From positions 32,001 through 96,000 of the IMG/VR virus record IMGVR_UViG_3300009431_000002: a stretch of DNA of 64,000 nucleotides; one strand, 5' to 3'. The notes below the pieces were generated by a model that saw nothing but the letters and a program-made list of their open reading frames with translations, ran no database searches and had not been told where the DNA came from. Below, piece after piece: positions 1-32,893 of this stretch. A program made the translations under genes and the position numbers. The stretch is from a virus. Taxonomy: Duplodnaviria; Caudoviricetes. The number at the start of each line of letters is the position of its first letter. Position 1 is the stretch's first letter.

Positions 1-837
1 GTCGTGGTGTTCAGTGACACCGGCTGCGAGTGGCCCCACACCTACGAGCTGGTGCCGCGACTGCACAAGCTGTGCACCGACAACGGCATCCCCTTCATCG
101 TGCTGGCCAAGCCGCCGTGCAAGCCGGACCCCAAGGACTACTCCTGGATCACCCACGAGCCGTGGACCGACAAGATCGGCGGCGGCGCCTACCACTACCG
201 CCTCGGCGTCCTCGAGGACTACCGCAGCCGCGAGACCGTGGTCTCCCTGGGCAAGGGGGACTGCACGGACAACCACAAGATCCAGCCGATCCGTAGGTTC
301 GTGCAGGATCTGTCCGTGCAGCGCTTCGGGCTCACCAACCGCCAGTACTCCGGCGAGGTCCGCAAGGGCGTCCGGGACCCCCACGTCAACCTCATCGGCA
401 TCGCCGCCGACGAGACGCGCCGGCTGTCCAACGCCGGCCGCAGCCCGGCCTACGTCACCGAGCTCTACCCGCTGGTAGACATGGGCATCCCCAAGGACGA
501 CGAGGCGGCCGTGCTCTCTCAGTGGGGGCTCAACGGCGTCAAGAAGTCCGGGTGCTTCGTGTGCCCGTACCAGCCCGCCGGCTGGTGGTGGGCGCTGTCC
601 GTGAGCGAGCCGGAGCTGTGGCAGCGCGCCGTCGAGTACGAGACCACGGCGCTGGCCCGCAACGCCAAGATGAGCGTCGCCAACGTCAAGGTCGCCGGCG
701 ATCTCCTCACCATCGACCAGGTCGTCCATCGCTGGCGCGAGCGGAACCCGCGCGCTACTGTCGAGGCCGTCCTGGCCAAGAGCTACACCCAGTGCCCCGC
801 CGAAGCGCGGGCTGACATGAAGGGCCTCTCCGAATGA
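1..837 (+). CDS. PAPS reductase / adenine nucleotide alpha-hydrolase family protein (5'-truncated by window edge)
   Basis: VFSDTGCEWP.TY PP-loop segment, LIGIAADE.RR, KSGCFVCPY Cys motif. Confidence 0.75.
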   Translation, partial: VVVFSDTGCEWPHTYELVPRLHKLCTDNGIPFIVLAKPPCKPDPKDYSWITHEPWTDKIGGGAYHYRLGVLEDYRSRETVVSLGKGDCTDNHKIQPIRRFVQDLSVQRFGLTNRQYSGEVRKGVRDPHVNLIGIAADETRRLSNAGRSPAYVTELYPLVDMGIPKDDEAAVLSQWGLNGVKKSGCFVCPYQPAGWWWALSVSEPELWQRAVEYETTALARNAKMSVANVKVAGDLLTIDQVVHRWRERNPRATVEAVLAKSYTQCPAEARADMKGLSE

Positions 838-1700
838 CCCCGTTCCTGAAGTGGTTGGGCGGCAAGGCCCGACACATCGACACCATCCACAAGCACCTGC
901 CCGAGCCCGCCGAGCACATGCACCGCCGCTTCCGGGTCTACGAGCCCTTCGTGGGCGGCGGGGCCGTGACGCTCTCGCTGCTGGACCGCCTGTCCGCCGC
1001 CCGGCCGCCGGTCATCCGCGACCTCAACCCCGCCCTGATCCTCACCTGGGAGGCGATCCGCGACGACGTGGAGGGCGTCATCGACGAGCTCGAGCAGCTG
1101 TGTCGCAACATGACCAAGGAGGCCTACGAGCTGGCCCGCGCCGACTTCAACCACGCCAAGAAGTTGATCCCCGACCTCATCGTCCGGCCGTCGGTCGTGC
1201 TGGCAGCGTACTTCGTGTACCTCAACAAGACCGGCTTCAACGGGATGTACCGGGAGAACAAGCAGGGCAGCTTCAACGTGCCGTGGGGCCAGAGGGAGAA
1301 CGCGGGCGTGTACCGCGCCTCCCACCTGCGCGCCGTGAGCCGGGCCCTCGACGACGCGGGCGCCATCATCGAGTGTGGCCCCTTCCAGGGCGTGCTGCCC
1401 GAGATCGGCAGCGACAGCTTCATGTACCTGGACCCGCCGTTCCCGCCGACGGCCGGCAAGGAGGGGTTCACGGACTACACGCCGGGCGGGTTCAACGACA
1501 TGGACCAGCTGGAGCTGGCCGTGTTCCTGCGCAGCGCCACAACGCAGGGCGGGAAGTGGATGCTCTCCATGCCCGACCAGCCCTACGTCCGGGAGTTGTA
1601 TCGTGGCTACAACTTCCACGAGATCCAGGCCCGCCGGGCCAACAGCGCAACCCCCGAAGGTCGAGGTGTGGTCAGCGAGCTGCTGATCACGAACTACTGA
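834..1700 (+). CDS. dam: Dam-family (D12 class) DNA adenine methyltransferase
   Basis: FLKWLGGK, EPFVGGGAV, DLNP.LI, YLNKTGFNGMYR.N..G.FNVPWG, YLDPPF (motif IV). Confidence 0.92.
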   Translation: MTPFLKWLGGKARHIDTIHKHLPEPAEHMHRRFRVYEPFVGGGAVTLSLLDRLSAARPPVIRDLNPALILTWEAIRDDVEGVIDELEQLCRNMTKEAYELARADFNHAKKLIPDLIVRPSVVLAAYFVYLNKTGFNGMYRENKQGSFNVPWGQRENAGVYRASHLRAVSRALDDAGAIIECGPFQGVLPEIGSDSFMYLDPPFPPTAGKEGFTDYTPGGFNDMDQLELAVFLRSATTQGGKWMLSMPDQPYVRELYRGYNFHEIQARRANSATPEGRGVVSELLITNY

Positions 1701-2245
1701 TGCACGCCACGTCACCGCACCACGTCGAGTGGGAGGACCTGGATGTCCAGCACCACGACGACGGCGTCGTGACCGTCGACATCCCCGGGCGCGTGCTGCC
1801 CATCGTCATCAACGTCGAGGCCGAGGACTGGAAGCTCGACGACCACAGGTCGTTCGTCCGCGGCGTCCTGTTGCAAGAGGGCTACCTCGTCCTGCCGCTG
1901 GAGTTCGTGGGCTACGGCCGCGCCATCCAGGCTGCCAACGGGAAGTGGTTGTGGATCCACCTCCTGCTGTACGACGACATCCCCATCCACGCCATGTCCG
2001 ACGACCGCGCCGTCCACATCCGAGTCTGCTACCAGGTTCCGGGGAGCATGCGACAGGACGAGCTGGTTGAGATCCGAACCCAGCTGGGTGAGCATGAGCA
2101 TCGCCTGGCCTACAAGCTGATGGACCTGATCGCAGATGAACTAGAGCTGGGACTGCGCTCGGTCAGCGCCCGGGCCCTCCTCAAGGTCGAGGGGTGGTCA
2201 CCGGACGTCGTGGCGGAGCATGTCACGCAGGAAGGAGGAGTATGA
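1700..2245 (+). CDS. hypothetical protein
   Basis: ATG overlaps the upstream TGA; coding-like from 1700 (the ORF track's earlier part is out-of-frame shadow). Confidence 0.7.
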   Translation: MHATSPHHVEWEDLDVQHHDDGVVTVDIPGRVLPIVINVEAEDWKLDDHRSFVRGVLLQEGYLVLPLEFVGYGRAIQAANGKWLWIHLLLYDDIPIHAMSDDRAVHIRVCYQVPGSMRQDELVEIRTQLGEHEHRLAYKLMDLIADELELGLRSVSARALLKVEGWSPDVVAEHVTQEGGV

Positions 2246-2613
2246 GCTGCGAACACCTGCCGACGGACGTGGGCTTCGGCTACGACGCCGGCAACATCAA
2301 GGTGACTGCGCGCTGCAACATCTGCGGCGCCAACCTGTACTACCACATCCCCCGCGACGAGTGGGGGGTCACCGACGACAGCCCCGTCGTGGTCGAGAAG
2401 TGGCAGGAGGCCGTCGATCTCTGCGACGACCTCATCGGCCGTGCCGAGGAGCTGATGGAGCCCCACGACGACATGGCCGCCAGCGCCATGGACTTCCTGG
2501 AGAGCGTTCGTGCCGACGCCGAGAGACGGCAGAGCGTCACGGACGCGCAGCTCGAGGGCATCGCCAAGTGGCGGACGGCCATCGAGAACGCGGAGGACCG
2601 GGCGTGCTACTAG
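2242..2613 (+). CDS. hypothetical protein with CxxC
   Basis: GGAGG RBS, ATGA overlap, RCNICG. Confidence 0.7.
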   Translation: MSCEHLPTDVGFGYDAGNIKVTARCNICGANLYYHIPRDEWGVTDDSPVVVEKWQEAVDLCDDLIGRAEELMEPHDDMAASAMDFLESVRADAERRQSVTDAQLEGIAKWRTAIENAEDRACY

Positions 2614-3152
2614 AGATCACTGCCCGGTACACCGAGCCGCACCGCGTCTACCACACCGTCGAGCATCCCGCACGGATGCTCCAAGAGGCCGCTAACCGCG
2701 GCATCCCCCTGACCGACACGCAGATCTGGGCCATCTGGGGCCACGACCTCGTCTACGAGCCAGGCGCCAGCGACAACGAGCGCCGCAGCGGGGAGCTGAT
2801 GGTGGAGATGCTCGACCGAGCCGGCCACCACCCCGACAAGGGCCGCATGGTCGAGCAGATCATTCTCGACACCAAGGACCACGTGCCGCACGTGCACCTC
2901 TCCGAGTTGGTCATCGACCTGGACCTGCTGGGCTTCGCCGACCTGGAGACCTCGCTGCGGAACATGCGCATGGTCCGCGAGGAGTTCACCCGCGCCCTCA
3001 AGCTGACCCACGAGCAGTGGGTCACGGGCCGCCGCGACTTCCTGCAGGGCATGCTGGAGCGCGACCCGTTCTTCGTGTCGGCGCCGTTCCGCAACCTGTC
3101 CAGCGCCGCGCGCGACAACATCGGCTACGAGCTCCAGAGGTTCCTGACGTGA
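2604..3152 (+). CDS. HD-superfamily metal-dependent phosphohydrolase (COG4339-like)
   Basis: YTEPHRVYHTVEH, WGHDLVYEP..SDNERRS, VIDLDL. Confidence 0.85.
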   Translation: MLLEITARYTEPHRVYHTVEHPARMLQEAANRGIPLTDTQIWAIWGHDLVYEPGASDNERRSGELMVEMLDRAGHHPDKGRMVEQIILDTKDHVPHVHLSELVIDLDLLGFADLETSLRNMRMVREEFTRALKLTHEQWVTGRRDFLQGMLERDPFFVSAPFRNLSSAARDNIGYELQRFLT

Positions 3153-3664
3153 AGGCCATGTACGCCGGGTCCTTCGACCCCCTGACCAACGGCCACCTCT
3201 GGGTCATCGCCGCCGCGTCGAACATCTTCGAGGAGATCGTCATCGGCGTCGGGTACAACCCCGCCAAGAGCGGCCACCTCCCCCTGGACCGCCGCATCAG
3301 CATCATCCAGCACGTGCTCATACGCATGGGCCTCGACGCCCTCGTCATCCCCGTGAGCACCGACACCTACCTGGTCCACAAGGCCGCCAGGCGTGGCTGC
3401 GGGGCGCTCATCCGCGGCGTCCGCAACTCCGAGGACCTGCGCTACGAGCAGATGGTCCAGGAGGTCAACCGCAACCTGGAGCCGGACGTCCAAACCGTCT
3501 TCCTGGTGCCCCCACCCCACCTCGCCAACGTCAGCTCCAGCCTGGTCCGGCAGCTCGTCGGGCCCGGCGGCTGGGAGAACATCGTGAACAAGTACGCGCC
3601 AATGGAGACCGTCCAGGCCCTGGCGCAGGCCCGTGCACGGGCCGAGGAGAACTCCAGTGGATGA
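3149..3664 (+). CDS. coaD: phosphopantetheine adenylyltransferase
   Basis: AMYAGSFDPLTNGHL, VGYNPAK, LIRGVRNSEDLRYE, N..LEPDVQTVFL, VSSSLVRQL. Confidence 0.88.
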   Translation: MKAMYAGSFDPLTNGHLWVIAAASNIFEEIVIGVGYNPAKSGHLPLDRRISIIQHVLIRMGLDALVIPVSTDTYLVHKAARRGCGALIRGVRNSEDLRYEQMVQEVNRNLEPDVQTVFLVPPPHLANVSSSLVRQLVGPGGWENIVNKYAPMETVQALAQARARAEENSSG

Positions 3665-4232
3665 GGCCATGTGGGTCCTGATCTTCGCCATCTGCAACGA
3701 CCGCTTCCTGCTGCGCCGGAAGACGCACCCTGCCCCGCAGGCTGGGAAGTGGAACGGCCTGGGAGGCAAGGTCTGCGACGACGACTACGCCGACCAGACT
3801 GCGGACCGTGACACCAAGGCGGGCTACTTCGACCTGCCGTACTACACGGCCATCCGCGAGTTCGCCGAGGAGGCCGGCGTCGACCTGCCGGGCCAGCGGC
3901 TCACCAACATGGCGACGCTGCACCTGCCGCTCGGCGAGCTCCACATCTTCCACGCCGACCTGACCGACGCCGAGGCCCAGCGCGTCGACACCACGCCGGA
4001 CAACACTGGCGAGTACAACCGCTGGTTCACCGTCGACGACGTCAACGACCTCGCCAACGAGGACCGCGTCGCCATGGACGAAGCCGGCATCGCCGTCAAC
4101 GACGACAGCGAGTGGGCCGTGGCGCACACCGTCGCGCTCATCGACCTCGTCCGCTCCCTGACCGGGGAGTGGGCCTCGATGGACCGCAGCGGCCCGCCCT
4201 ACGACCCCGCCTACCGGAAGCCGACCACCTGA
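3657..4232 (+). CDS. Nudix hydrolase
   Basis: GKWNGLGGKV ... TAIREFAEEAG Nudix box with an insertion. Confidence 0.85.
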   Translation: MDEAMWVLIFAICNDRFLLRRKTHPAPQAGKWNGLGGKVCDDDYADQTADRDTKAGYFDLPYYTAIREFAEEAGVDLPGQRLTNMATLHLPLGELHIFHADLTDAEAQRVDTTPDNTGEYNRWFTVDDVNDLANEDRVAMDEAGIAVNDDSEWAVAHTVALIDLVRSLTGEWASMDRSGPPYDPAYRKPTT

Positions 4233-4507
4233 TGCCTATGCAGGAGCGTGTGCAGCAGGAGATCGCGGCCGTCTGCGACGAGGTCAAGGAGCTGCTCCTG
4301 GCCAAGAACCGCGAGTACGGCAACAGTGCCTTGGAGCCTGTGCGGATCTTCTCCAAGGCGGACAGCGTCGAGCAGATCAAGGTCCGCATCGACGACAAGC
4401 TCTCCCGGCTGTCCACGGCCGGCGAGAAGACGATCACCGAGGACACGGAGATGGACCTCATCGGCTACCTGGTGCTGCTGAAGGTGGCTCAGAGGCTGCG
4501 GGACTGA
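4232..4507 (+). CDS. DUF1599 / nucleotide-modification-associated domain 1 (MazG-like) protein
   Basis: LLAKNREYGNS, VRIDDKLSRL, DTEMDLIGYLVL. Confidence 0.75.
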   Translation: MPMQERVQQEIAAVCDEVKELLLAKNREYGNSALEPVRIFSKADSVEQIKVRIDDKLSRLSTAGEKTITEDTEMDLIGYLVLLKVAQRLRD

Positions 4508-4749
4508 TGGACGTCGTCGTCTGCCAGCAGTGCGGCCTGGAGCACTTCCTGGACCAGCTGTACGAGGAGCGCCGGAACCGCTGCGATGGCTGCGGTGCCG
4601 GGCTCCCGCTGTCCAAGCCGGTCACCGTCGAGTCCGAGACTCCCGAGGTACCACCGGAGCTGGCAGAGGCCGACTTCCTGGGCCGGATGATGGCTCACGC
4701 CTACGTGACGGAGCTGACCGCCATCACCGGCAAGGTGCTGGAGGACTGA
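4507..4749 (+). CDS. zinc-ribbon protein
   Basis: CQQC...CDGC. Confidence 0.65.
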   Translation: MDVVVCQQCGLEHFLDQLYEERRNRCDGCGAGLPLSKPVTVESETPEVPPELAEADFLGRMMAHAYVTELTAITGKVLED

Positions 4750-4750
4750 C

Positions 4751-5716
4751 GTGCTGACGCGACCAGAGCTCGTCCACCACGCCAACCGCATCTACCGGAA
4801 GTACCGCCGCATGGACCTGTCGCTCACCCTGCGGCAGCTCTACTACCAGCTCGTGAAGCTGGGGCTCATCGTCAACAAGCAGACCGAGTACGGACGCCTG
4901 GGCAAGGCGCTCTCCAAGGCACGGCTCAACGGCGACTTCCCCCTCGAGGGGCTGGTCGACCGCGGCAGGCACGTGACCCCCGACACCGCCACCCTCTACA
5001 GCGACGACGTCGACATGGTCGAGCCCGTCGCCCAAGCCTACGCGGGCGCACTGCCCAAGTGGCTGCTCGACTACGGTCGCTGGGCTGGGCAGGAGAAGTA
5101 CGTCTGTGTCCTGTGCGAGAAGGAGGCGCTCGCGGGCGTCTTCCAAAGGCCGTGCAAGAGCCTCGGCGTCTCGTTCCTCGCCTGCAAGGGCTACCCCAGC
5201 ATCTCGTCCCTCTACGCCTGGGTCCTCCAGGCGAACCAAGCGATCAACGGTGGCCAGTGGACCGACGACCGCCACCTGCAGCACTGGGCGTTCGCACAGC
5301 GCGCCGTCATCCTGTACTTCGGCGACCTCGACCCCGACGGGTGGGCGGTCCCGAAGGTCGTGAGCGACCGGGTCGGGCGCATCCAGAGCTTGACGGGCAT
5401 GGAGTTCCCCGTGGATGTGGAGCGTGTCGCGCTGAACCTGGACCAGATCGAAGACCGCGGCCTCCCACCCTTCCCGGCAAAGGACAGCTCCTCGCGGTAC
5501 AAGAAGTACGTTCAGGAGGTCGGCATCGAGGACGCATGGGAGCTCGATGCCCTAGACCCGCCCGAGCTCATCGAGATGATCCAAGACGCCATCTCGGTCC
5601 ACTTCGATGAGCACGTGCACGCGTACAACAGCGACCGGATCGAGACCCTGCGGGACGACCTCCGTCGGCGCATGCTGACAGACGGATGGTTGGAAGACGC
5701 ACTGGGAGAGGAGTGA
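4751..5716 (+). CDS. Topo VI-A / Spo11-like TOPRIM protein
   Basis: TLRQLYY winged-helix Tyr, LCEKEAL, KGYPS, YFGDLDPDG, ERVALN..QI, WELDAL. Confidence 0.8.
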   Translation: MLTRPELVHHANRIYRKYRRMDLSLTLRQLYYQLVKLGLIVNKQTEYGRLGKALSKARLNGDFPLEGLVDRGRHVTPDTATLYSDDVDMVEPVAQAYAGALPKWLLDYGRWAGQEKYVCVLCEKEALAGVFQRPCKSLGVSFLACKGYPSISSLYAWVLQANQAINGGQWTDDRHLQHWAFAQRAVILYFGDLDPDGWAVPKVVSDRVGRIQSLTGMEFPVDVERVALNLDQIEDRGLPPFPAKDSSSRYKKYVQEVGIEDAWELDALDPPELIEMIQDAISVHFDEHVHAYNSDRIETLRDDLRRRMLTDGWLEDALGEE

Positions 5717-5718
5717 CG

Positions 5719-7098
5719 ATGAACTGGCGCTACTTCCGTCAGAAGGGCCGGCGGCACACGCTGGCCTGGCAGATCGCCGTCGCCGACGACACCGTCTTCG
5801 TCCACTACGGGATCGTGGACGGGCAGTTCCAAGACACCAGCGACACCAAGCGCCCCGTGAACGTGGGCAAGCGCAACGAGAAGTCCGCGGAGCAGGTGGC
5901 CCAGGAGAACGCCGAGAGGCAGATCCTGATGAAGCGCCGCTCCGGCTACTACGAGGTCGACGCCAAGGGCCGCCCGCTCGAGGCCGCGCCCGAGATGATG
6001 GACTTCGACGACATCCCCATCAGCCTCCGGTTCTGGAAGCCCACCAACACCCTGGGCGCCGGCATGGTCAAGAAGTTGGAGCGAGGGCACGCCTGGGCGG
6101 GCCGCAAGCGCAACGGCATGGCCTACCCGATGGTCGTCCAACCCGACGGGTCCGTGGACCTGTACAGCCGCGTGATGCTGCCGGCCCACCGCGAGGACCC
6201 GGAGACGCCGTGGAACCAGTACTTCCGCCACGTCGTGACCGAAGCCGAGGACATGGTCCGCCGGCACAGCATCCCGGGGGAGTCCATGCTCCTGGGCGAG
6301 CTGGTGGCCAGCCGCGACACCGACGACTTCTACTACGTCGAGTCCGTGACCGGCAGCCTGTGCGCCCGCGCGCAACGTCTGCAGGCCGAGCAGGGGCTCC
6401 TGCACTACTACTTCTGGGGCGTCGGCTTCTGGGGCGGCAAGCCCGCCTGCAGCCTGTGGCCGATGGGTCGGCAGTACGAGGTCCTCGAGGACCTGGCCTT
6501 CGGCGGCGAGTTCCTGCTGCCGCCCGACATCTTCTTCCCGGAGGAGATCGCTCGCTTCGTCGACAAGCACCAGACCGCCACGGCCGTCGTCGCCCTCCAA
6601 CAGGAGGCCATCGAGCGTGCGTGGGAGGGCTGGGTCGTCGTGGACCCCGAGCTCTCCCTCAAGGACCGCGCGTGGAACCTGCGGGGCAAGACCGACCGCT
6701 CCGCGCCGGTCGCCGGCAAGTGCAAGCCCATCTTCGAGGACGACTTCGTCGCCCTGTGGAACCCCGACGACGGCTACGGCAAGTGGGGCACTGGCAAGTT
6801 CCAGGGCTCCGTCGGCTCCGTGGCGCTGTACCAGTACACCACCAACGGCACGCTGACCTACATCTGCGACTGCAAGGGCGGCATCAAGGAGAAGGGCAAG
6901 GACCCCAAGGCTCCCCCCGACTCCTGCTGGCGCCACATCCTCGAGAACGTGGCCAGCTACCCGCTGGTCGTCGAGGTCCACTACGACTCCCGCACCTACG
7001 TCTCCAAGGGCGCCAAGACCGACGCCCTGTCCTTCCCGCGGATGGTCCGCATCCGCCACGACAAGGCCCCGGAGGAGTGCATCAACGAGGAGCTGTGA
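5719..7098 (+). CDS. ATP-dependent DNA ligase with WGR-like N-terminal domain
   Basis: KRNG motif I, LLGEL, EGWVV, KCKP, C-terminal OB fold ending LSFPR..RIRHDK...EC. Confidence 0.8.
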   Translation: MNWRYFRQKGRRHTLAWQIAVADDTVFVHYGIVDGQFQDTSDTKRPVNVGKRNEKSAEQVAQENAERQILMKRRSGYYEVDAKGRPLEAAPEMMDFDDIPISLRFWKPTNTLGAGMVKKLERGHAWAGRKRNGMAYPMVVQPDGSVDLYSRVMLPAHREDPETPWNQYFRHVVTEAEDMVRRHSIPGESMLLGELVASRDTDDFYYVESVTGSLCARAQRLQAEQGLLHYYFWGVGFWGGKPACSLWPMGRQYEVLEDLAFGGEFLLPPDIFFPEEIARFVDKHQTATAVVALQQEAIERAWEGWVVVDPELSLKDRAWNLRGKTDRSAPVAGKCKPIFEDDFVALWNPDDGYGKWGTGKFQGSVGSVALYQYTTNGTLTYICDCKGGIKEKGKDPKAPPDSCWRHILENVASYPLVVEVHYDSRTYVSKGAKTDALSFPRMVRIRHDKAPEECINEEL

Positions 7099-7113
7099 CG
7101 ACACTGTGTCGTC
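7097..7113. repeat. palindrome GACGACACTGTGTCGTC (copy 1 of dispersed operator-like site)
   Basis: 8-bp arms with a 1-nt centre, overlapping the ligase stop codon. Confidence 0.8.
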
Positions 7114-7129
7114 GACCGCGAAAGCGGTC
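7114..7129 (+). terminator. GNRA hairpin GACCGC-GAAA-GCGGTC after the ligase operon
   Basis: 6-bp stem with GAAA loop, no U-tract. Confidence 0.45.
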
Positions 7130-7138
7130 TACGATCCA

Positions 7139-7149
7139 GGGATAAGGGG
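7139..7149 (+). promoter_or_regulatory. phage promoter-like motif GGGATAAGGGG
   Basis: member of the recurrent G(G/C)NAYAAGG family, upstream of GGAGG and ATG. Confidence 0.6.
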
Positions 7150-7163
7150 TACGGAGGTGACCC

Positions 7164-7739
7164 ATGTATCGTTTCACGCTTCTCGCACTCCTGCTCGCCC
7201 TGGGGTGCACTCCGACCGTCTCGATGGAACCGGAGCCACAGTCCCACCACTGGCTCGACGATGACGACATCACGGCCGGCGACGACGACACCGTCGCTGA
7301 CGACGATGACGACGACTCGACGGGTGATGACGACACCGGCGACGACGACACCGCGGACGACGATGACGTTGGCGATGACGACTCCGCCGACGACGTCGGC
7401 ACCGTCACCGTCGACCCCGTGGAGATCGACCTCGGCGTGGTCCTCGTCGGCACCGACCGCTCCGAGATTCTGCACATGGAGGTGGTGGAGGGTGCCGGCA
7501 CGGTCGTCGTGGACATCGACGTCGCCGAGATCCTCGAGGCCGGCTTCACCGTCAATGGCTACGAGGCCGTGGTCGAACTCTCGGAGGATCCTTGGGCCAC
7601 GCCGGACTACTCGATGACGGTCATCGCGGAGCCGACCCTGGAGAGCCAGGTCGGCGTGTGGTCCGGAAGCATCTACATCGAGGCCTCACCAGGTGGCGAG
7701 GTCGTGGTGCCGGTGGTCGTGGAGGTGGTGCCGGAGTGA
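7164..7739 (+). CDS. predicted lipoprotein with Asp-rich GDDDT repeats and an Ig/ASH-like domain
   Basis: signal peptide with LALGC lipobox; (G/A)DDD(T/S) repeats; DPVEIDLGVVLVG. Confidence 0.75.
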   Translation: MYRFTLLALLLALGCTPTVSMEPEPQSHHWLDDDDITAGDDDTVADDDDDDSTGDDDTGDDDTADDDDVGDDDSADDVGTVTVDPVEIDLGVVLVGTDRSEILHMEVVEGAGTVVVDIDVAEILEAGFTVNGYEAVVELSEDPWATPDYSMTVIAEPTLESQVGVWSGSIYIEASPGGEVVVPVVVEVVPE

Positions 7740-7745
7740 CTGGTT

Positions 7746-7774
7746 CCCCGGGGGCCCTGCGGGGGCCTCCGGGG
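7746..7774. terminator. GC-rich hairpin between convergent genes
   Basis: CCCCGGGGGCCC...GGGGCCTCCGGGG. Confidence 0.55.
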
Positions 7775-7780
7775 CGGCGG

Positions 7781-7975
7781 TCAGGGGCTCAGCGCCATAG
7801 CCCCGAAGGACTTGCCGCACGCCGGGCACTGGCTGACCGCCCGGCCGCTGCGGCTGGGCCTCTTGACCAGCATGGCGCCGCCGCATCTCGGGCAGACGCT
7901 GTTGGCGGCTGCGGTGCCGCCCTTCTTCTTCAGCCTCTTGAGGTGGGGCGGGCTCTGCGTGCGGACCTTCGGCAT
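7781..7975 (-). CDS. small basic zinc-ribbon protein
   Basis: CPRCG...CPACG; GGAG RBS. Confidence 0.65.
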   Translation of the reverse strand: MPKVRTQSPPHLKRLKKKGGTAAANSVCPRCGGAMLVKRPSRSGRAVSQCPACGKSFGAMALSP

Positions 7976-7983
7976 GACGGCTC

Positions 7984-8628
7984 CTAGTCTTCGTCCTCAC
8001 CGAAGAACTGCGTGCCCTCGGCGTAGCCGGCGGCGACACCCTCCGCAGCGGCGGCCGTGGCCTCGGTGAGCTCCTTGTCGTTCAACTCATCGAGCTTCAT
8101 ACTATCGCGTTCCGCTGCCTCTTTGGCTACCTTTTCCTGCGCAGCCTTGAGCCGCTCGGCCTCCTCGAGGCGCTTCTTCTGGGCCTCGACGCGCTCGACC
8201 CTCGCGGAGTTGGCGCACTTGAGCAACATCTCGTCCGTGATGACGGGCGCCCAGCCCTTCGGCACCTCCTCGGCCGTGCGGCCGTCGCCGGCGAGCTGGG
8301 CCTCCAGGAGCCGCAGCCGCTGCTCGTGGTCCTCGGCGACCTGTGCCTGGACCGCCGAGTGCTCCCGGTACGCCCGCGCGATGCCGTGGAGCTTGTCCGC
8401 CACCTCGTCGATGTAGTCGCACAGCGTCTTGTCGTTGGTCGAAAAGGCGTCGTTGAAGCTCTTCATCGACTTGTTGACGTTGATGGAGATGCCGTGCACC
8501 TCCGTGCGCAACCCGTCGAGGGAGCCCTTCAACTCCTCGGCGAGCTTGAGGGCGCGCTCGGCGATGGTGAGCTTCTTCGGCTTGTCCTTGCCCTTCTTGC
8601 CGGGCTTCTTGGCGGGCTTCTTGGACAC
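7984..8628 (-). CDS. coiled-coil hypothetical protein
   Basis: Lys-rich N-terminus, helical composition, GGAGG RBS. Confidence 0.75.
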   Translation of the reverse strand: MSKKPAKKPGKKGKDKPKKLTIAERALKLAEELKGSLDGLRTEVHGISINVNKSMKSFNDAFSTNDKTLCDYIDEVADKLHGIARAYREHSAVQAQVAEDHEQRLRLLEAQLAGDGRTAEEVPKGWAPVITDEMLLKCANSARVERVEAQKKRLEEAERLKAAQEKVAKEAAERDSMKLDELNDKELTEATAAAAEGVAAGYAEGTQFFGEDED

Positions 8629-31809: not shown

Positions 31810-32893
31810 CCTGCTGAACCTCGTCTACCACGAGCGCCTGGTCCGCCACGAGCCCGGCGTGGCGAACCTCCGGACCGACGCGGACCTCCGCGCCGCGATC
31901 CTCCTCACGCTGGTCGAGCAGATGCCGCAGCAGGAGCTGGACGAGGCCACGCACACGGCCTTCCTGGAGCGTCTGCAGGAGCTGGGCGCCGATGGCGACG
32001 GTGCGGTGGGGTTTATGAACAGGGTGATGTCCATCCCCGCCGCGGCCGCCATGTTCCTCGCGTTCAAGCACTGGGACGTCGGTTCGCCGGTCTACGTCGT
32101 CGGGCCGCGGCTCCAGTCGATGTTCACGCGGACGAAGCTCGACAGTGCCCGACAGGAGGACTTCCGCCTGCCGTACAGCACCGTCTACCTGGCGCTCCCG
32201 GAGTGCGAGCTCACCGTCTGGGGCGGCTCGGCACGCCACCGGCTCATCGGAGCCTTCGTCCACCGATCCAGCTTCCAGGTCCTCGCCGACGACGGCTCCT
32301 CATCCGAGGGGCTCTACATCATCCTCGCCGGCGAGGACCACAGCCCGCCAGGTGAGTTCGGCGACGACGCCCTGCGCACCATGCCCATCCGGCTCGACCT
32401 GCCCATCGAAGGGCAGATCGGCCGCAAGTCGTTCTACGACGCCTCCCACCCGGACGACGACGACCGGCAGCTGGACCGGGAGGCCATGAGCCTCGCTGTC
32501 CGCATCATCATCAACGCCCTGCTCTACATCACCACCGGACTACCGTCCGAGGAGACCGCGGAGAGCAAGAAGCGGCTGGCGAAGCGGCAGAAGCTGCTGC
32601 GGAGGACCGGGAAGAAGGCCAAGAAGGCCCACAGCATCGCGGGCAAGCTGAGCCCCGTGTCCGTGGTCTGGCTCGGCCGCTCTGTCGAGCAGACCGCGCA
32701 CCAAGGCGGCACCCACGAGTCGCCGCGCCAGCACTGGGTCACCGGCCACTGGCACACCTACCTGTACGGCCCCGGCCGCACGGAGCGCCGGCTCAAGTGG
32801 GTCCAGCCGTTCTTGCGCGGCGACCCGCAACGTGGTGAGGTCCAGACCCGGGTCCACCACATGGAGGAGACCGATGCCTCAGATGACTCGTGA
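31802..32893 (+). CDS. conserved phage protein with a C-terminal HW.xGHW motif
   Basis: SPRQHWVTGHWHTY..GPGR.ERRLKWVQPF.RG. Confidence 0.75.
   Translation: MTDLLNLVYHERLVRHEPGVANLRTDADLRAAILLTLVEQMPQQELDEATHTAFLERLQELGADGDGAVGFMNRVMSIPAAAAMFLAFKHWDVGSPVYVVGPRLQSMFTRTKLDSARQEDFRLPYSTVYLALPECELTVWGGSARHRLIGAFVHRSSFQVLADDGSSSEGLYIILAGEDHSPPGEFGDDALRTMPIRLDLPIEGQIGRKSFYDASHPDDDDRQLDREAMSLAVRIIINALLYITTGLPSEETAESKKRLAKRQKLLRRTGKKAKKAHSIAGKLSPVSVVWLGRSVEQTAHQGGTHESPRQHWVTGHWHTYLYGPGRTERRLKWVQPFLRGDPQRGEVQTRVHHMEETDASDDS

Follow-up and report, generated by a model that had tools for sequence, protein, structure and literature searches.

An intact-looking CoaD gene beside an HD-fold hydrolase gene in an uncultured large phage, and recurrent linkage of the two families in other genomes

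Gene content and organization of the locus

Why would a phage carry a gene for coenzyme A (CoA) synthesis, and do the genes around it belong to the same pathway? CoaD converts 4'-phosphopantetheine and ATP to dephospho-CoA, the second-last step of CoA synthesis, after which CoaE carries out the last phosphorylation. Phage CoaDs have been annotated in several giant phages, but to our knowledge nobody has shown their purpose. We analyzed a 64,000-nucleotide stretch (here called the window; IMG/VR record IMGVR_UViG_3300009431_000002, positions 32,001 to 96,000) of the 202-kb genome of an uncultured phage, in which an intact-looking CoaD gene lies beside three small hydrolase-type genes. From a GC3 frame plot and the sequence, four overlapping plus-strand genes were placed at window positions 2604 to 4507, with one ORF flanking them on each side:

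2242..2613, + strand: cysteine-rich ORF, 123 aa, overlapping the HD start (GC3 frame and RBS; flanking, module membership not claimed)
2604..3152, + strand: predicted HD-fold metal-dependent phosphohydrolase or phosphodiesterase, 182 aa (GTG start, GGAGG 7 nt upstream)
3149..3664, + strand: CoaD, predicted phosphopantetheine adenylyltransferase (PPAT), 171 aa (GTGA overlap with the HD gene)
3657..4232, + strand: divergent Nudix hydrolase, 191 aa (GTG start, GAGGAG 8 nt upstream; alternative start ATG at 3669)
4232..4507, + strand: DUF1599-like (Nmad1-like) three-helix protein, 91 aa, predicted homodimer (TGATG overlap with the Nudix gene)
4507..4749, + strand: CxxC...CxxC zinc-ribbon ORF, 80 aa, abutting the DUF1599-like gene (sequence; flanking, module membership not claimed)

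Family-profile searches returned no family match for the 123-aa ORF and weak zinc-ribbon matches for the 80-aa ORF, while a Pfam search of further flanking ORFs (1700 to 2245, 7164 to 7739, and six on the minus strand) gave nothing useful. A sequence-only reading of this DNA had described the four genes as coupled. Their overlaps are real but not specific to them, since window positions 1 to 7098 hold eleven co-directional genes that all overlap or abut, with no promoter- or terminator-like sites seen inside the block. Because all eleven are joined alike, gene overlap alone is uninformative about the function of the four-gene set. Upstream of the four genes, the block also contains genes for a Dam methylase and a PAPS-reductase-like protein. 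The family calls of that reading (HD, CoaD, Nudix, and DUF1599) were right at the superfamily level, as judged by profiles, the HD fold, and hhalign comparisons.

Among the CoA-pathway genes sought, CoaD was the only one found in the genome; profile searches recovered no CoaE, PP-binding (ACP), or ACPS (ACP synthase) gene. The same searches found no NAPRTase/NAMPT, MazG, second Nudix, or second CTP_transf_like gene, and no ThyA-like, ThyX, or TGT/DpdA base-modification gene was present in the genome. Close relatives were not recovered by a megablast search of positions 2000 to 8000 against phages or by single-protein scans of IMG/VR with the CoaD, HD, and Spo11-like proteins. A 236-kb contig carrying the best DUF1599-like match was considered as a relative and rejected as unrelated (44% GC, one weak shared match).

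CoaD is predicted to be a working adenylyltransferase

The CoaD protein passed the NCBIfam equivalog model TIGR01510 (130.6 bits, cut-off 103.3) and scored 19 to 27 bits against NMNAT models, whose cut-offs are 112 to 181. All 34 matches in a PDB sequence search were PPATs. The motifs claimed by the sequence-only reading, namely, GSFDPLTNGH (of the (T/H)xGH type), RGVR...D..YE, and SSS, were all found in the protein. Across 48 sequences, including that of the window phage, G7, S8, F9, D10, P11, T13, G15, H16, K40, R89, G90, R92, D96, E100, and N107 are invariant, and seven of these (H16, K40, R89, R92, D96, E100, and N107) align with known catalytic or substrate-binding residues. Of 47 strongly conserved columns, 41 are unchanged and the other 6 carry conservative changes. 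The phage protein is therefore motif complete, and its conserved residues predict a working PPAT. It resembles bacterial CoaD (TIGR01510; Escherichia coli structure 1B6T) in fold family, length, motifs, and every position invariant in the 48 relatives; it differs in being phage encoded and in having an HD gene upstream, whereas CoaD has its usual housekeeping neighbors in loci L001 to L004.

A phylogeny of CoaD had been proposed as a check together with the sequence-only reading, and near identity to a host copy was one half of the outcome named there as counting against it; that half did not occur. No copy found exceeds 47% identity to the window CoaD, whose terminal branch is long (1.1 changes per site), weakly resolved in its placement, and nested in no host clade. 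The CoaDs of other large phages (Brevundimonas jumbo phages, Myxococcus phage Mx1, Lak megaphages, and LR756500) are scattered over the tree and 31 to 37% identical to the window protein, a polyphyly which indicates separate acquisitions by several large phages. In each of these phages, as in ours, CoaD is a lone CoA-pathway gene, usually set among genes for nucleotide or cofactor metabolism. The immediate neighbors nevertheless differ from those in the window phage: the Brevundimonas phages have Pth beside CoaD, Mx1 has a second cytidylyltransferase, NAMPT also being close by, and a Lak phage has Ham1 and SAICAR synthase on either side. LR756500 is the only compared phage with an HD partner for CoaD, and there the two are fused. 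That the window CoaD was acquired independently, is old, and remains intact speaks for selection on the supply of CoA in infected cells.

The upstream gene encodes a predicted HD-fold hydrolase

The protein encoded upstream of CoaD matched phrog_19425, "phosphohydrolase," in PHROG (2.8e-23) but no Pfam model, including the HD model PF01966, even at E values up to 10. It belongs to an uncharacterized family of 6314 representative clusters, of which 3 of 65 members examined matched PF01966, weakly (best, 6e-4). In the alignment of 65 sequences, R14, H17, H21, H47, E59, S62, T90, D107, and E127 are invariant and D48 is nearly so; these include an HD-type metal-binding set, H...HD...D, made up of H17/H21, H47-D48, and D107. 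The AF2 model (pLDDT 98) had essentially only HD-superfamily or HD-domain-bearing proteins among its best 50 VIA-align matches, including PDE1B (Z 13.6), 2pq7 (Z 13.2), YpgQ (Z 11.3), and YedJ (Z 10.8). The predicted fold and the conserved H...HD...D residues thus confirm the HD label without Pfam support. PDB sequence matches of the family were to TAL effector repeats sharing an "LT..Q..AI..HD" word and were discarded as spurious.

Alignment with the phosphodiesterase catalytic domain covered 181 to 182 of 182 residues (Z 13.6, rmsd 3.4), although by the tool's own note a Z of ~13 also occurs among unrelated helical folds, and Foldseek matched a class I cyclic-nucleotide phosphodiesterase at an E value of 4e-3. 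The model spans the core alone of the 270- to 330-residue class I catalytic domain, and the second histidine of the phosphodiesterase signature HD..H.G is a tyrosine in the phage protein (HDLVYEPG). In E. coli, the HD-superfamily ACP phosphodiesterase AcpH (193 aa) frees 4'-phosphopantetheine, the substrate of CoaD. AcpH may serve as a working analog of the window HD protein, being an HD-type phosphodiesterase of similar size; it is not a member of the family, with which it had no sequence similarity by hhalign (probability 0.2%).

HD and CoaD genes are linked across many phyla

We asked whether the pairing seen in the phage recurs in genomes sampled independently of it. Among 80 cellular loci picked on CoaD similarity alone, with HD and CoaD genes called by HMMs built from our own alignments, an HD-family gene lies directly 3' of coaD on the same strand, with a gap of 51 to 211 nt, in 18. 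These 18 loci span nine or more phyla, with carriers among the Verrucomicrobiota, Planctomycetota, Acidobacteriota, Kiritimatiellota, Bdellovibrionota, Pseudomonadota, candidate-phyla bacteria, and Woesearchaeota, and their flanks are otherwise not conserved. CoaD and HD are encoded in a single ORF in loci L103, L129, L156, and L180, the carriers being a bdellovibrio-like bacterium, an archaeon, a candidate-phyla bacterium, and one 462-kb uncultured phage (LR756500, locus L180). In a sample taken from the HD side, CoaD was attached in 5 of 19 HD-bearing Planctomycetota, and 4 of these 5 HDs are parts of 605- to 640-aa CoaD-CoaE-HD proteins, the middle part of which matches dephospho-CoA kinases (2grj, 2.7e-13). 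This association between the HD family and CoaD is new in this analysis. In a search of a limited library, we found no paper tying CoaD to an HD partner, no match for COG4339, and no description of a third, C-terminal HD domain on CoaD-CoaE proteins.

The phage pair does not fit neatly into this pattern. Its gene order is HD followed by CoaD, the reverse of the cellular order. In the HD tree, the window HD falls in a half (28 rows, 99% support) without other CoaD-linked members, and all 24 CoaD-linked HDs fall in the opposite half. Its nearest relatives of known context adjoin MazG, YfbR-like nucleotidase, arginase, or RlaP/radical-SAM/Dam genes, and none is beside CoaD. The Brevundimonas jumbo phages encode both an HD protein and CoaD, about 25 kb apart. 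The functional module proposed by the sequence-only reading therefore survives in part: adjacency and fusions elsewhere argue for an HD-CoaD unit, tempered by the position of the window HD in a family branch without other CoaD links, while the Nudix and DUF1599-like genes have no conserved tie to CoaD.

The Nudix and DUF1599-like proteins

The sole Nudix gene of the genome encodes a divergent protein that matched PF00293 at 32.7 bits (cut-off 21.1) over profile positions 44 to 128 only. Compared with the canonical box GX5EX7REUXEEXGU, the distance from the GG(K) glycine to RE is 29 residues rather than 13 and the first glutamate is an aspartate; the box contains an acidic insert (~16 residues) and keeps its REFAEEAGV helix intact, and the protein has a C-terminal extension. 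Its N terminus carries an MTH1-like KWNGLGGK motif, with weak MTH1 matches over residues 5 to 52, and neither a second domain nor a zinc motif of the NudC type was seen in the sequence. No relative was found by tblastn in 50,697 phage records. A Nudix gene occurs in the flanks of 1 of the 18 cellular CoaD-HD loci and beside CoaD in none of the other phage contexts examined, so no conserved Nudix-CoaD link was found. In having a nucleotidyltransferase next to a Nudix gene, the locus is reminiscent of NadM-Nudix (NMN adenylyltransferase/ADP-ribose pyrophosphatase) fusions, whose transferase belongs to the same superfamily; unlike in those fusions, the transferase here is CoaD type rather than NMNAT type, and the genome has no NAMPT. 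Structural neighbors of the Nudix protein in the Atlas include viral CTP_transf_like+NUDIX fusion clusters, a lead only.

The 91-aa protein matched phrog_1485 (1.7e-16) and belongs to a very conserved, mostly viral family of more than 6800 clusters at 60 to 76% identity, none with a Pfam domain. The protein itself had no match to PF07659, "nucleotide modification associated domain 1" in Pfam, at the cut-off of 25 bits; 1 of 51 relatives matched (E value, 0.053), and one relative reached 16 bits over the full profile. By hhalign, the family is nonetheless homologous to gp57 of Geobacillus phage PK5.1 (probability 97.7%, E value of 1.5e-12, 80 columns), a bona fide DUF1599 protein (33.5 bits against PF07659). 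The two share the motifs KN.(D/E)YG(N/D)S, R(I/L).DKL.R, and EDT..D(L/I).GY. The DUF1599 label given by the sequence-only reading is thus borne out by profile comparison, below the Pfam threshold, and these profiles and motifs identify the family as a hidden branch of DUF1599, with its own mostly viral subfamily. The AF2 model (pLDDT 87; predicted homodimer score 0.69 versus 0.00 for the best control) had weak full-length fold matches within the MazG-like superfamily only (2p06, Z 7.1; 2yxh, Z 6.1; 4qgp, Z 5.8; 7ody, Z 5.7). Profile comparison by hhalign with two MazG-type proteins detected no similarity, Foldseek returned nothing significant from the PDB, and the family profile had chance matches only among PDB sequences.

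Upstream neighbors of the DUF1599-like family include GMP reductase/IMPDH, UDG, and Nudix genes. A general Nudix/DUF1599-like pairing was considered and set aside, as 3 of 52 distinct upstream neighbors are Nudix genes and the pairs in loci L006, L007, and L013 represent one syntenic lineage. Sixteen long viral contigs with the DUF1599-like family held no full-length CoaD; their single CTP_transf_like match covers only model positions 2 to 39, at a marginal 24.5 bits. We found no conserved link between this family and CoaD.

Possible roles of CoaD and its neighbors

The explanation we favor, at about even confidence, is that the predicted working CoaD is an auxiliary gene for CoA supply and that the upstream HD enzyme most likely serves that pathway too, as part of a salvage or finishing unit. 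CoaD would make dephospho-CoA, host CoaE would carry out the last phosphorylation, and CoA synthesis would thereby keep running during infection. The HD enzyme, as a metal-dependent phosphodiesterase or phosphohydrolase, might free 4'-phosphopantetheine from a conjugate, whether CoA, one of its derivatives, or a holo-carrier protein, or might instead clear a product such as pyrophosphate. That HD and CoaD form a CoA salvage or finishing unit is plausible because their adjacency and fusion recur elsewhere; every substrate, and the partnership of the phage's own HD protein with its CoaD, is something we infer. Of the three roles put forward by the sequence-only reading, the one in best agreement with the evidence is that of a CoA-boosting auxiliary gene. 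The Nudix and DUF1599-like proteins would be nucleotide-pool or nucleotide-binding enzymes, and we propose that they are present here because the early block gathers nucleotide and DNA-metabolism genes. The Nudix enzyme could conceivably feed the same CoA route.

It is also possible, at clearly lower probability, that the four genes are an unlinked auxiliary assortment in a dense early block, with the HD protein a (d)NTP phosphohydrolase of the YpgQ/YfbR kind beside CoaD by chance. On this account, CoaD would boost CoA synthesis, and the Nudix and DUF1599-like proteins would have the task of cleaning or sensing the nucleotide pool. The grouping of the window HD with phage-type stand-alone HDs beside MazG or YfbR-like genes, the structural matches to YpgQ and YedJ, the nucleotide-related genes upstream of the DUF1599-like family, the Ham1 and SAICAR synthase flanks of the Lak CoaD, and the separation of HD and CoaD in the Brevundimonas phages are all consistent with it. 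Yet two given genes among about 250 would be adjacent by chance in only ~1% of genomes, and adjacency or fusion of these two families recurs many times in other genomes, another giant phage among them. A counter-defense role, in which the HD protein destroys cyclic-nucleotide immune signals and has nothing to do with CoaD, appears very improbable. Its best fold matches are class I phosphodiesterase catalytic domains over the whole model (Z 12 to 13.6, with the Foldseek match in agreement), and the family keeps an invariant set of H-x3-H, HD, E, T, and D; however, the generic HD hydrolase 2pq7 gives an equal score, in a range reached by unrelated helical folds, the signature reads HDLVY where a second histidine is expected, and cellular genomes commonly encode the family, with fusions to CoA enzymes.

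Two further roles raised from the sequence bear on CoaD itself. Transcripts can be initiated with dephospho-CoA (dpCoA), and dpCoA caps are removed by NudC and several other Nudix enzymes (PMC9283932). CoaD could raise dpCoA for transcript starts by RNA polymerase and the adjacent, overlapping Nudix gene could encode the cap remover, but we found no support for such a write/erase pair and regard it as highly unlikely: CoaD and Nudix genes are not conserved as neighbors in either cellular or phage contexts, and the window Nudix, lacking detectable phage relatives and NudC-type features, has an N terminus like those of MTH1-type sanitizers. We consider it just as improbable that the CoaD fold has been repurposed to adenylylate another substrate, so that this enzyme and the DUF1599-like (Nmad1-like) protein together supply a precursor for DNA modification. 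The long CoaD branch, the Pfam name of DUF1599, and the Dam methylase and PAPS-reductase-like genes upstream might suggest this, but CoaD passes the equivalog cut-off with its conserved positions intact, the genome has no ThyA-like, ThyX, or TGT/DpdA gene, and the 16 viral contigs with the DUF1599-like family carry no full-length CoaD. Neither this repurposing nor its counter-defense variant, both proposed by the sequence-only reading, found support.

Beyond this phage, we raise more tentatively that the HD family as a whole is an unrecognized CoA-metabolism enzyme working alongside CoaD and CoaE in many phyla, whether by releasing 4'-phosphopantetheine from carrier proteins or CoA derivatives or by clearing a product, and that large phages would carry HD plus CoaD so as to rebuild CoA from host material while infecting. 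The recurrent linkage to CoaD and to CoaD plus CoaE gives a concrete, cheap biochemical hypothesis for an HD family of thousands and may mark a missing CoA salvage step in Planctomycetota, Verrucomicrobiota, candidate-phyla bacteria, and DPANN archaea. Joining the last steps of CoA synthesis has a precedent in the bifunctional CoA synthase (COASY), a PPAT-DPCK fusion. The window phage departs from COASY in having CoaD and HD as separate genes and no CoaE. The Planctomycetota CoaD-CoaE-HD proteins follow it in placing CoaD before a dephospho-CoA kinase and differ from it in their extra C-terminal HD domain.

Gene organization

The virus record is a single sequence of 201,921 bp with a G+C content of ~67%, of which the window is a part. 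The sequence-only reading described four coupled genes at 2604-4507, encoding an HD hydrolase, CoaD (phosphopantetheine adenylyltransferase [PPAT]), a Nudix protein, and a DUF1599 protein. Gene calls from the sequence and a frame-specific GC3 plot confirm this stretch. It lies within a block of 11 co-directional genes, window 1-7098, in which stop and start codons overlap or abut at every junction:

1-837, +, PAPS-reductase-like gene, first of the block
834-1700, +, Dam
1700-2245, +, ORF
2242-2613, +, cysteine-rich ORF
2604-3152, +, HD-like gene; GTG start, GGAGG 7 nt upstream
3149-3664, +, CoaD; GTG start, GTGA overlap with the HD stop
3657-4232, +, Nudix; GTG start, GAGGAG 8 nt upstream
4232-4507, +, 91-codon gene; TGATG overlap with the Nudix stop
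4507-4749, +, zinc-ribbon ORF
4751-5716, +, Topo VI-A/Spo11-like gene
5686-7098, +, ligase-like gene, last of the block

No promoter-like or terminator-like sites were found upstream of 7904, including inside the block itself. The coupling of the four genes is thus real but not peculiar to them, since all 11 are joined in the same way. The four are flanked by two small ORFs rich in cysteine, at 2242-2613 and 4507-4749.

Conservation and origin of the phage CoaD

The phage CoaD scored 130.6 bits on the NCBIfam PPAT equivalog model (cut-off, 103.3), and all 34 of its PDB sequence matches are PPATs. Aligned with 47 relatives, it keeps every invariant position (GSFDP.T.GH, K40, R89, G90, R92, D96, E100, and N107) as well as 41 of 47 columns with ≥80% conservation in the other aligned sequences, and the changes in the six differing columns are conservative (I/L, E/D, G/A, C/A, A/V, and T/V). 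Nothing in this sequence suggests an altered active site, and the suggestion that a CoaD-fold enzyme was repurposed for DNA modification therefore finds no support. The best identity to any copy found was 47%, and the nearest named relatives are spread across Bdellovibrionota, Verrucomicrobiota, Planctomycetota, and others. Placed in an 89-sequence tree, the phage CoaD has a long terminal branch of 1.1 changes per site and no supported sister group. Given this low identity, long branch, and scatter of relatives, the gene is not a recent host copy. The CoaDs of Brevundimonas jumbo phages, Myxococcus phage Mx1, Lak, and the uncultured 462-kb phage LR756500 occupy separate places in the same tree, so large phages have gained CoaD several times. 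Searches of the phage genome for CoaE (dephospho-CoA kinase), PP-binding, and ACPS, and for NAMPT or a second nucleotidyltransferase of the CoaD superfamily, found none. Altogether, the sequence points to a genuine, anciently acquired auxiliary PPAT, in agreement with the proposal of an auxiliary gene; phage-borne CoaD is an auxiliary gene of an already known kind.

The closest CoaD relative (47% identity) lies on a contig binned as a Deltaproteobacteria MAG (L099:341-3694), where it is surrounded by small co-directional ORFs without Pfam matches; this contig looks like a phage or mobile element rather than a chromosome. In Prevotella phage Lak-B5 (L179:1793-3849), a Ham1 ITPase and SAICAR synthase flank CoaD. 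In Mx1 (L096:3495-7125), a second cytidylyltransferase-like gene comes after CoaD, and four genes past it there is a nicotinamide phosphoribosyltransferase.

The HD protein and the recurrent association of its family with CoaD

The HD protein had no match to Pfam models and matched a PHROG annotated as a phosphohydrolase. An exhaustive search recovered 6,314 representative clusters of relatives. Among 65 aligned members, only three of which gave weak matches to the Pfam HD model, the residue pattern is H...HD...D, with R14, H17, H21, H47, E59, S62, T90, D107, and E127 invariant and D48 nearly so. An AlphaFold model (pLDDT, 98) was searched against known structures independently of Foldseek, and essentially all of the best 50 matches are HD-superfamily or HD-domain-bearing proteins; a Foldseek search was concordant. 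Catalytic domains of class I cyclic-nucleotide phosphodiesterases aligned over ~180 of 182 residues (Z, 12 to 13.6; rmsd, 3.3 to 3.5), followed by or alongside the predicted HD hydrolase 2pq7 (Z, 13.2), YpgQ (Z, 11.3), and YedJ (Z, 10.8), with alarmone hydrolases at a Z of ~8. The original "HD hydrolase" label therefore holds at the level of fold.

A tBLASTn search of all window proteins against all compared loci placed HD matches directly downstream of CoaD in many cellular loci. Using HMMs built from the CoaD and HD alignments, we found a same-strand HD-family gene 51 to 211 nt downstream of coaD in 19 of 88 loci, 18 of them within the 80 cellular loci, which had been selected on CoaD similarity alone. 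The 18 cellular pairs represent Verrucomicrobiota, Planctomycetota, Acidobacteriota, Kiritimatiellota, Bdellovibrionota, a Dongiaceae proteobacterium, two candidate-phyla bacteria, and Woesearchaeota. Since the flanking genes differ in nearly every locus, the pair itself has the hallmark of a functional unit of two genes. Both domains share one reading frame in L103, L129, L156, and phage LR756500 (L180). The LR756500 fusion is a 386-aa ORF (LR756500.1; L180:2492-3652) in which Pfam detects only the CoaD part and the C-terminal 190 residues match the HD HMM (1.3e-28).

Among 151 Planctomycetota genomes, 19 carry the HD family, and CoaD is attached in 5 of these 19. In four cases the domains lie in one ORF of 605 to 640 aa (L218:286-2064, L220, L221, and L222, from genomes G167, G119, G186, and G093, respectively). 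The 250-residue middle part of one matches dephospho-CoA kinases (PDB 2grj; 2.7e-13), which makes all four CoaD-CoaE-HD fusions, by sequence three-domain CoA-finishing proteins. Within the literature searched, no link of CoaD to an HD partner and no description of such a three-domain protein turned up. The recurrent CoaD(-CoaE)-HD association is thus undescribed as far as we could find, and it is the part of this analysis that deserves follow-up.

For the phage pair itself, this link has limits. The HD tree splits in two, with all 24 CoaD-linked HDs in one half and the phage HD in the other, within a 28-member set (99% support). Its relatives of known context there were found on phage-like contigs, next to a YfbR-like nucleotidase, MazG, arginase, or RlaP/radical-SAM/Dam genes, and CoaD was not seen beside them. 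Furthermore, the phage order, HD then CoaD, reverses the cellular order, and in Brevundimonas jumbo phages the two genes are both present ~25 kb apart. The phage pair is therefore an independent juxtaposition of families linked elsewhere. Since two given genes among ~250 would be adjacent by chance roughly 1% of the time, the juxtaposition fits a functional tie without proving one, and HD and CoaD plausibly form a functional unit. By analogy with AcpH, the E. coli ACP phosphodiesterase, and by the logic of fused pathway enzymes, the HD protein might free 4′-phosphopantetheine from a conjugate or clear a product of PPAT; a profile comparison of the HD family with AcpH found no similarity.

The Nudix and DUF1599-like proteins

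The sequence-only reading is thus partly supported: HD and CoaD may constitute a unit, but inclusion of the Nudix and DUF1599-like proteins in one module is unsupported. Likewise, a dpCoA RNA-cap write/erase pair has no support, as no conserved CoaD-Nudix pairing was found in the contexts examined. The Nudix protein, the only one in the phage genome, scores above the Pfam cut-off with only the second half of the model matched. Its N terminus (KWNGLGGK) resembles MTH1-type enzymes, and its REFAEEAGV helix is intact; ~16 extra, mostly acidic residues (DDDYADQTADRD...) are inserted in the Nudix box between the GGK glycine and that helix. A tBLASTn search of 50,697 phage records returned no match. 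Its structural neighbors in the Atlas include viral cytidylyltransferase-Nudix fusions, which recall NadM-Nudix enzymes and offer only a lead.

The 91-aa protein belongs to a family of >6,800 clusters (60 to 76% identity) in which 19 positions are invariant. The family lacks a Pfam domain and any annotation, and IMG/VR alone contains >590 stretches that match it. The protein itself fails the Pfam DUF1599 model, and one relative reaches 16 bits over the whole profile. However, the family profile aligns to gp57 of Geobacillus phage PK5.1 (probability, 97.7%; E, 1.5e-12), which passes the DUF1599 cut-off (33.5 bits versus 25), so the label survives as remote homology. The model has three helices (pLDDT, 87), and its only full-length fold matches are weak ones to all-alpha NTP pyrophosphatases (Z, 5.7 to 7.1). 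No similarity to two MazG-type proteins emerged from profile comparison; since two phages carry both MazG-type and DUF1599-type genes, these are probably not redundant. The protein is predicted to form a homodimer, with a score of 0.69 (best of three controls, 0.00). Of 30 proteins solved as same-chain pairs, 20 reached that mark, against 1 of 23 whose structures are single chains. Agreement between runs is ≥98% of contacts, with partner pLDDT of at least 84. Helices 1 and 3 would form the interface, leaving invariant R52, D54, D55, K56, and R59 of helix 2 exposed.

A full-length CoaD was absent from all 16 long viral contigs with this family that were compared; one of them had a short, marginal CTP_transf_like match (24.5 bits). 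Upstream genes in 52 viral loci represent mixed nucleotide metabolism, including GMP reductase/IMPDH (5), Nudix (3), and UDG (3), with the three Nudix cases belonging to one syntenic lineage. The family (window 4232-4507, L013-L092) is among the most conserved small viral proteins we have met, and in Synechococcus phage S-CRM01 the 287-aa protein g157 carries it as its N-terminal part. In one lineage of low-GC (37 to 44%) marine jumbo phages (L006:4585-5297, L007:4595-5291, and L013:3502-4249), the DUF1599-like gene lies immediately downstream of a MutT-like Nudix gene, in a syntenic neighborhood that further includes topoisomerase I, NifU, DUF6356, an Fe-S assembly gene, and superoxide dismutase. 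The Nudix-to-DUF1599-like order is common to that lineage and this unrelated high-GC phage.
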